The notes below the pieces were generated by a model. That model did no database searches. It saw nothing but the letters and a program-made list of their open reading frames with translations, and was not told the origin of the DNA. From Escherichia coli (GTDB lineage: Bacteria; Pseudomonadota; Gammaproteobacteria; Enterobacterales; Enterobacteriaceae), in the NCBI RefSeq assembly GCF_003334335.1, contig NZ_QOWQ01000060.1: a DNA stretch of 14,550 nucleotides; one strand, 5' to 3'. The first letter of the stretch is position 1. Every line of letters starts with the position of its first letter. Below, one piece after another: positions 2,840 through 4,134 of this stretch. Both the position numbers and the translations under genes were made by a program.

Positions 2840-3116
2840 ATTGCTGGATAAGATCATAACGATACACCGGGTTAAACAGGTGGTCACTGCTTCACTGAAG
2901 CTGCGTGATTATGATGGTCAGGTAGCAGAAGCTATGCCCATGATACCAAAATGACGAAAGCCGAAATGTCTGAAAGCGTGTGTATTACCTGAAAATATGA
3001 CCGGCTCCGGGGTACGTAACCGATTCAACAAAGCCAATCGATATTACAAAACGAGAGGGACTATATATTTCGTTTTCAGATAAGACTCCTTGAGAGATTA
3101 TCTTTTATGTAAAATC

Positions 3117-3410
3117 TCAAATATCACCTGATGTAATGTCAATGATAATATTAAGTGCGCTCTGAACAACATCTTTCTTGGTGTGATTAACATCTGACAA
3201 AAAGAACATCAGCTTCTTTATTATGTTCTTGTTGTTTATTATTTCACGCTCACAGAATAAAGCGTTGACTGCCTCTTCTATGACATTTCTCTCGTAAAAA
3301 AATTGAGAGTTAGCTTCATATAAAATATTGGCCAATTTTTCACCAAAAACCATATTATAATAATCACTGTGCATCTTTCTCCCCCAGGGTTCAGTCAATA
3401 ATTTTACCAT
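3117..3410 (-). CDS. Hypothetical 97-aa protein in an AT-rich orphan segment
   Basis: The only ORF of this length in the low-GC block between the IS3 remnant and IS1. The protein is hydrophilic and Lys/Asn/Ile-rich with no obvious transmembrane segment, and the ribosome-binding site is weak (AGG close to the ATG). I recognise no family. Confidence 0.4.
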   Translation of the reverse strand: MVKLLTEPWGRKMHSDYYNMVFGEKLANILYEANSQFFYERNVIEEAVNALFCEREIINNKNIIKKLMFFLSDVNHTKKDVVQSALNIIIDITSGDI

Positions 3411-4134
3411 GCCTAATTATGACAGGTGTAACAAGCATATTTTGCTATATAAATAAAATACATAATACTGATTATTGTAAGAACAGGAAGCAGACTAATG
3501 GTTTTTTTTGTGAGCACATTCCTTCTTATGTAGGAAGAGGCTGTATTATATTCAGTCAACTCTTTTTTACTAAAAACATTATCTATGCCATCAAAGTTGC
3601 CTGCTAGCTAATTTTTAGGATATCGCCTTGTCGTGGATTATGCACTCTAAACATGTAGAAGGTATTCATTACAAATACACAGACGGCCATCTTTTGTAAA
3701 ATGGATGCCGTTTTAAGTGAGATTCTGATTTTCAAATTGTTCCGGACTGAGACCGCCACACCAACTGTACCATCGCCAGCGATTGTAATCGCACTCGATA
3801 TAATTAAGTAAGTTTGCTGATTTTGCTGTTTACTGCGACAGATGTAAAGCTGTGGTGATTCATGCAGACTAAGTTCACGAACTCCGGCAGTAACACCGAT
3901 GCATTCTGCAAGCTTCAGATCTTAACTACGAAATTCATGCGAATGGTGTTTACGTTTTTTTACTGGTTGAAACTGTTTTGTCTTGTGAATCACCTCTGAC
4001 TGAGAGTTTACTCACTTAGCCGCGTGTCCACTATTGCTGGGTAAGATCACAACACTTTAAAATGCCCTATATAGGGTTAACCAGTAATTATCTGTATGAT
4101 AGCTTTGAGTTCGGGAGGAGGTAATGACTCCAAC

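Follow-up and report, generated by a model that had tools for sequence, protein, structure and literature searches.

AriR (YmgB) of Escherichia coli K-12 is a small cytoplasmic dimer with three helices, and the Rcs phosphorelay that it triggers increases colanic acid production and acid resistance while decreasing curli and motility. Its gene (b1166; crystal structure, PDB 2OXL) belongs to the ycgZ-ymgA-ariR-ymgC operon, located beside bluR-bluF, and the operon is AT rich (30 to 41% GC). [quoted passage not shown] Activation of Rcs by YmgB is independent of both RcsF and the periplasmic domain of RcsC and is blocked by the RcsD T411A substitution (PMC11451591). YmgB also increases ppGpp by binding SpoT at its TGS-helical region, the level of the protein being sufficient by itself, and the R74G substitution abolishes SpoT binding and ppGpp accumulation but leaves Rcs activation unaffected (PMC10704370). 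YmgB was reported to work as part of a complex that also contains YcgZ and YmgA (PMC6900184). Both of these are small helical proteins encoded in the ariR operon and putative connectors, and they are reported to associate with YmgB and to act on Rcs (PMC6900184, PMC3509220).

Here, we analyzed a stretch of 14,550 nucleotides from an E. coli contig (NZ_QOWQ01000060.1, assembly GCF_003334335.1), called the window below, in which a gene related to ariR is found in a very different setting. Complete E. coli chromosomes match the whole 14.5-kb window at 100%, and the RefSeq annotation of the identical sequence starts with the end of an IS66 transposase, followed by a phytase-like esterase (1026-2384, minus strand), the insertion sequence (IS) remnants that surround the AriR-like gene, a copy of IS1F, and ykiE and then fecIRABCDE (from position 5124). 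The locus is the fec (iron-citrate) island, which the annotation of K-12 places within the KpLE2 phage-like element. While ariR sits in its operon beside bluR-bluF, the window gene stands alone between IS fragments beside fec, with neither the ycgZ, ymgA, and ymgC partners nor the control region through which BluR, BluF, and MarA act on the native operon.

The IS debris around the gene could be delimited from the RefSeq annotation together with sequence comparison. On the left, an IS3-family fragment, of which an ORF piece is annotated at 2666-2797, ends at 2839 and is directly followed by a 17-nt terminal-repeat remnant (2840-2856, ATTGCTGGATAAGATCA). Direct comparison showed this remnant to be the same IS3-family terminal repeat as that at 4033-4049, and a 42-nt version of the repeat seen at 2840-2856 and at 4049 is present in plasmid L003. 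Next comes a pseudogene fragment of an IS5/IS1182-family transposase (2862-2992, plus strand), annotated in the identical RefSeq sequence, with a 75% match to IS903B in the same plasmid. On the other side of the gene lies an internally deleted IS3-family element (3713-4049, minus strand; RefSeq pseudogenes at 3713-3817 and 3811-4015), in which the frameshifted start of orfA has been joined to the part encoding the transposase C terminus. Its GC content is 42.3% over 3713-4045, and its terminal repeat ends at 4049, exactly where homology to plasmid L003 stops; when an IS3-type right inverted repeat was sought at ca. 3623-3650 to pair with this left end, only about 10 of 23 positions matched by eye. 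The right boundary is IS1F (4120-4887, minus strand), bordered by 23-nt inverted repeats at 4120-4142 and 4865-4887 and 99.9% identical to the IS1F of K-12, where the element directly abuts yjhU and all of the sequence to the left of 4120 is missing. Both limits given in a preliminary description of this DNA, the IS3-family end at 2839 and IS1 from 4120, were thus recovered.

That description had also regarded the segment between these elements as far more AT rich than its surroundings, and the figures bear this out, with a GC content of 36.7% for 2950-4119 versus 55.1% for the remainder of the window. The segment is heterogeneous, its leftmost 43 bases being part of the IS5 fragment and the strong AT richness being confined to ca. 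2993-3712. Inside this interval, the limits of homology to a second plasmid lineage define a minimal conserved cassette (3052-3625, minus strand) of 574 bp, made up of an upstream region of ca. 250 bp, the gene, and ca. 65 bp downstream. Its GC content of 32.1% is about 5 standard deviations (SD) below the mean of the 245 other 574-bp windows (mean, 55.4%; SD, 4.7; minimum, 44.1%). An Rfam scan of 2300-5300 at E values of up to 1 returned no RNA family.

The cassette carries the minus-strand ORF at 3117-3410, 97 amino acids (aa) long when counted from the first ATG, exactly as described before, although its likely start has to be moved to 3374. Three lineages, with amino acid identities of 100, 87, and 46%, all have the ORF intact. 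The most distant of them, P0061, is a protein of the YmgB/AriR family encoded on IncF plasmids of E. coli, e.g., pSA31IncF (CP076277). When 1.84 billion cluster representatives were scanned exhaustively by phmmer with a single sequence as the query, P0061 was the only divergent relative; apart from it, the scan returned fragments and frameshift products of the gene itself. Three starts compete, namely, ATG 3410 (97 aa), TTG 3398 (93 aa, the RefSeq version), and ATG 3374 (85 aa), and each of these readings is found in databases on ca. 1,000 or more contigs. The true start is most likely ATG 3374, as strongly suggested by three features of the sequence. A Shine-Dalgarno-like GGGGGAG (3379-3385, minus strand) precedes this codon by 4 nt, and the second lineage keeps GGGGGA at the position. 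In the sister lineage (87% amino acid identity), both upstream starts have been thrown out of frame by the loss of 1 nt between them and ATG 3374, and the reading frame that begins at the upstream ATG ends after 19 codons. Finally, P0061 aligns from exactly the methionine of ATG 3374 (the M13 equivalent), and a longer ORF is impossible there. We therefore rejected the 97- and 93-aa gene models, on account of the sister-lineage frameshift and the P0061 start, in favor of a gene at 3117-3374 (minus strand, stop codon included) with a likely product of 85 aa (MHSDYYNMVFGEKL...TSGDI); the 12-codon N-terminal extension of the 97-aa reading (3375-3410, minus strand) is probably an untranslated leader.

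Upstream of the gene, a candidate promoter consists of a perfect −10 hexamer, TATAAT (3545-3550, minus strand), common to both lineages, and a weak −35, and an extended −10-like sequence, TGGTAAAAT (3401-3409, minus strand), might provide a second one. A consensus scan for promoters and terminators called no more sites than in shuffled sequence and none upstream of the AriR-like gene; the TATAAT at 3545-3550 escaped it because no −35 reaches 4 of 6 positions. A 48-aa hydrophobic ORF immediately upstream of the gene (3413-3559), with a TTG start and unannotated, was considered as a translationally coupled small membrane protein. It is broken in the sister lineage by a 28-nt deletion and other indels and has no counterpart upstream of P0061, and since the sister-lineage indels destroy it, we do not regard it as a gene.

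The preliminary description could place the product in no family, but several comparisons of sequence and predicted structure assign it to YmgB/AriR. In an hmmscan search, PF10798 (YmgB/AriR) matched with an i-Evalue of 7e-6 (26.3 bits), covering residues 40 to 96 of the 97-aa reading and model positions 2 to 59 of 59. BLASTP against AriR of K-12 gave 30% identity over 83 residues (E value, 3e-8), and hhalign comparison of the mobile clade with a profile of AriR orthologues from Escherichia, Citrobacter, and others gave a probability of 97.4% and an E value of 1.5e-11 over 81 of 85 columns. Among the PDB sequences, phmmer matched the YmgB crystal structure 2OXL in one end-to-end alignment (E value, 1.6e-3). 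The top-ranking match in that search, 9s1t, a de novo designed helical barrel, was discarded as compositional and repeat-like, being made of three weak stretches. The AlphaFold2 model (mean pLDDT of 78.6, ca. 90 over the core) predicts helices at 26-41, 48-60, and 67-82, and when this model was compared with the PDB by Foldseek, the top match was 2oxl_A (probability, 1.00; target-normalized TM score, 0.84; root mean square deviation [RMSD], 1.6 Å over 57 columns), the only one of the 39 matches with an E value under 2, the next one being at 2.6.

The residues that typify the family are also present. In an alignment of 26 sequences, A35, V36, K49, and I51 were invariant and K12, L14, E28, N48, N50, L55, L59, and D68 were conserved in at least 90%, and the window protein has all of them, keeping the A-V motif of helix 1, NNKNII, the two leucines of helix 2, and the aspartate at the start of helix 3. 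Taken together, sequence comparison and the predicted fold indicate that the window protein is a divergent, all-helical member of the YmgB/AriR family. The RefSeq label, "biofilm development regulator YmgB/AriR family protein," attached to thousands of records, is by the same comparisons already correct at the family level. The ORF had been singled out as the likeliest undescribed item in the window; given that it is placed in a family and annotated in RefSeq, it is not that item, nor is it a fragment of a known larger gene. Literature searches on AriR- or YmgB-like paralogues and on four RefSeq accessions of the window protein found no relevant paper. As for the precomputed Pfam assignments, AriR and P0061 carry PF10798 and the field is empty for the cluster of the window protein, which marks its match as a weak and divergent one.

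Compared with AriR itself, the window protein is of similar size (85 versus 88 aa) and can be aligned over the full length, with an identity of only ca. 30%. The HMM match, the profile-profile comparison, and the predicted fold all put the two in one family, and both genes lie in AT-rich DNA. The window protein is no AriR equivalog, as the NCBIfam scan gave no family at an E value below 0.01 and none near its curated cutoff. The residue that separates the two activities of YmgB differs as well, since R74 of AriR aligns with a glutamine (DVVQSAL versus DVIRKTL in AriR). Glutamine is also found at this position in the 87% lineage, and the arginine is retained only in P0061. Operon context, residue 74, and the equivalog model thus all set the window protein apart from AriR proper. 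Its affinity is nevertheless with AriR rather than with the other small proteins of the operon, judging from a joint alignment in which identity was 31% to AriR, 20% to YmgA, and 18% to YcgZ; BLASTP of the window protein against YmgA produced no alignment. P0061 has the same length and start position and is also a lone gene of low GC content (28 to 34% at its locus) on a mobile replicon. Its neighbors are a shf-like deacetylase, a membrane protein annotated as MFS, an SMR transporter, VirK, an IraM/PmrD-like protein, and a glycosyltransferase, a neighborhood different from that of the window, and the two loci have no nucleotide similarity.

When the cassette was searched for elsewhere, it was found in 1,700 of 5,426 complete E. 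coli genomes (31%), nearly always as one chromosomal copy with at least 99% identity, and on 49 plasmids (41 from Escherichia, 7 from Salmonella, and 1 from Shigella). Carriers include BL21, O26:H11 11368, and O104:H4, and K-12 is without it. In the second plasmid lineage (L012, L013, L014, and L016), an identity of ca. 88% extends only over 3052-3625 and the flanks are unrelated; on the IncF plasmids of the sister lineage, they consist of a Tn3 transposase fragment, an IS1 fragment, and a TacAT pair. On another IncF plasmid, a 1.39-kb block (2661-4049) that includes the IS debris is conserved at 97.7% identity and adjoins yacAB and an ester cyclase. In pMRSN346647_113.1, the segment 2946-4119 is located between two copies of IS1 in an arrangement resembling a composite transposon. 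Horizontal spread of the cassette is therefore well supported by these comparisons, because one sequence is found both in the chromosomal fec island and, with unrelated flanks, on IncF plasmids, and the foreign origin that had been proposed from composition stands. The contexts differ from one location to another without any conserved partner gene beside the AriR-like gene, and the 574-bp shared cassette holds one conserved ORF; nothing was found that ties the gene to toxins, immunity, or defense.

Our preferred reading, which we hold to be reasonably probable, is that the core at 3052-3625 is a horizontally acquired cassette carrying an AriR paralogue within IS debris by fec and that the protein is a likely Rcs connector. 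By analogy with AriR, the 85-aa cytoplasmic protein would act through protein-protein contacts as a connector on the Rcs phosphorelay, and the paralogue, when expressed, would provide an extra input to the envelope-stress and biofilm signaling of the host. Given its base composition and the missing operon partners, the gene is probably transcribed alone from its own AT-rich upstream region (with the TATAAT at 3545-3550) and its expression is probably kept low, plausibly via H-NS, as for other AT-rich acquired DNA. An activity directed at SpoT and toward ppGpp synthesis is probably weak or absent, since the residue equivalent to R74 of AriR is a glutamine and coupling to SpoT may thereby have been reduced or lost. 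A bolder version, which we consider doubtful, sees the cassette as a mobile signaling hijacker spread by IS1 and IncF plasmids that would act, without SpoT binding (R74Q), either as an activator of Rcs or as a poisoner of YcgZ-YmgA-AriR. In the former case, Rcs would be switched on independently of the BluR, BluF, and MarA inputs, and in the latter, mixed oligomers would poison the native complex. One plasmid carries two such paralogues and an IraM-like anti-adaptor, a combination suggestive of a small set of plasmid-encoded modulators of host stress responses.

The main rival to the Rcs-connector reading is silent cargo, that is, a genuine AriR-family gene that is an inert, silenced, or decaying passenger traveling with the fec island and IncF plasmids between active IS elements; we regard this as unlikely but to be taken seriously. 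The gene is embedded among pseudogenized IS fragments, the consensus promoter scan was negative, K-12 lost the gene with no known consequence, and frameshifted and IS1-split alleles occur in some genomes. Between the window and the 87% lineage, we counted 11.5 nonsynonymous and 3.5 synonymous changes, and the resulting dN/dS ratio of ca. 0.76 would be compatible with decay, although 15 changes are too few to separate relaxed from moderate constraint. On the other hand, the disrupted alleles are a minor fraction and by far most copies have an undamaged ORF, with the 85-, 93-, and 97-aa readings on ca. 1,000 or more contigs each. Against the same 87% lineage, there are no indels in 258 coding nucleotides and 33 gap columns in 249 upstream nucleotides. 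In addition, neither the 46% nor the 87% relative is disrupted, both retain the family motif, and the Shine-Dalgarno sequence and the perfect −10 are conserved between lineages.

The remaining alternatives concern what the protein does. The small regulator put forward in the preliminary description agrees with the YmgB/AriR assignment, but the other classes that it proposed, an immunity protein or an antitoxin, to which a component of a defense island can be added, are largely refuted and highly improbable. A protein that is small, hydrophilic, and helical and whose gene lies in low-GC DNA between IS elements would suit such a role, and plasmid copies do lie within a few kilobases of toxin-antitoxin pairs (yacAB, Phd/Doc, and TacAT). 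However, these pairs are complete in themselves and vary with the context, the 574-bp cassette has no conserved partner ORF (the 48-aa ORF being broken in the sister lineage), and the family assignment points elsewhere. NCBIfam, PADLOC, and PHROGs searches with the ORF and the small ORFs near it gave nothing meaningful either, the sole PADLOC match being to a type II restriction enzyme model (E value, 0.0086; 13 bits). A nucleoid modulator of the Hha/YmoA type, working with H-NS instead of as a connector of a two-component system, is very unlikely as well. The structure of YmgB reportedly resembles Hha, and Hha paralogues are typically plasmid borne, as the window gene often is. Nevertheless, no Hha or YmoA structure was present among the 39 Foldseek matches in the PDB, of which only 2OXL had an E value under 2, and later genetics and biochemistry place YmgB on RcsC and SpoT (PMC6900184, PMC10704370, PMC11451591). 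We also think it improbable that the paralogue acts chiefly on the stringent response by binding the TGS-helical region of SpoT and raising ppGpp, as AriR/YmgB does by direct binding (PMC10704370). Helix 3, the site of most of the substitutions that cause loss of binding, is well aligned and confidently modeled, but it has diverged (DVVQSALNIIIDIT versus DVIRKTLEIVLRYT) beyond the replacement of R74 by glutamine in the window protein and the 87% lineage, with the arginine kept only in P0061.

The significance of these results is modest in that one candidate unknown is removed from the window, and the 85-aa gene model, starting at 3374, settles three competing RefSeq starts. They also mean that models of Rcs and biofilm regulation based on K-12 omit a second, mobile gene of the AriR type that is present in about one-third of the complete E. 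coli genomes, among them those of BL21 and of the major pathogens O26 and O104. Should the hijacker proposal be true, a plasmid or an island could tune the biofilm, capsule, and acid resistance of its host to its own benefit. With its natural R74Q replacement, the window protein lends itself to testing whether the Rcs and SpoT activities of the YmgB/AriR family are separable.

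On the conjugative IncFIB plasmid pMRSN346647_113.1 (L004, NZ_CP018207.1), a stretch equal to window positions 2946 to 4119, which includes the AT-rich cassette (3052 to 3625, minus strand) with its AriR/YmgB-like gene, carries a copy of IS1 on each side (L004 positions 6229 to 8940), an arrangement that is composite-transposon-like. Plasmid-borne evgA/evgS-like genes adjoin this copy. EvgA/EvgS is a two-component system associated with acid resistance, and its proximity to an AriR-like gene makes a curious pairing. IS1 also interrupts the cassette itself in a few records (the E. 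coli genomes H66 and H74 and the plasmid H121), where an insertion divides it in two. P0028, a 96-aa cluster representative whose N terminus differs (MNYLLSVVFYIIGPQTP...), may be a junction product of such a split cassette.

The conserved cassette ends at 3625 and the IS3-family transposase fragment has its stop at 3713, which leaves 87 bp (3626 to 3712) where the right end of the IS3-family element should lie. Compared with the left terminal repeat, which ends at 4049, this interval gave a weak match, at ca. 10 of 23 positions.

Upstream of the AriR-like gene, a 48-aa open reading frame with a hydrophobic stretch (3413 to 3559, minus strand) ends 3 nt short of the ATG at 3410 and has the appearance of translational coupling to it. 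It is probably spurious, since it starts with TTG, is unannotated, and is broken in the sister plasmid lineage of the cassette by a 28-nt deletion and further indels.

Escherichia coli K-12 (L011, positions 4518472 to 4519239) retains IS1F, ykiE, and fec; its 99.9% identity to the window starts at 4120 and extends at least as far as 5000, where the compared stretch ends. In K-12, yjhU lies directly at the other side of IS1F. This strain therefore lacks the AriR-like cassette along with the phytase-like esterase and the IS debris, a pattern that would be consistent with a deletion or rearrangement mediated by IS1. In the window, this esterase ("esterase-like activity of phytase family protein," 452 aa; 1026 to 2384, minus strand) stands alone between an IS66 element and IS debris, as further island cargo. 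Farther along, RefSeq annotates the 85-aa hypothetical protein WP_000177060.1 (13227 to 13484, minus strand; extendable to 137 aa) in a dip of 42 to 45% GC downstream of fecE, just before an IS3-family pseudogene; the K-12 counterpart position is the yjhV pseudogene.

Two AriR-family paralogues, namely, P0061 (46% identity to the window protein) and an 87.7% variant of the window cassette, are found ca. 11 kb apart on the IncF plasmid pSA31IncF (L018, NZ_CP076277.1; ca. 2750 to 14350; see also L005 to L010). Directly downstream of P0061, in DNA of 30 to 33% GC, L005 encodes a 445-aa multipass membrane protein (8839 to 10176), named an MFS transporter by RefSeq and with no Pfam hit on record. 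Between the pSA31IncF paralogues are situated an IraM/PmrD-like small regulator and shf-like, VirK, SMR, and glycosyltransferase genes. Given that iraM is close to the bluRF-ycgZ-ymgABC region in K-12, this plasmid island and the K-12 region may share a common ancestry.
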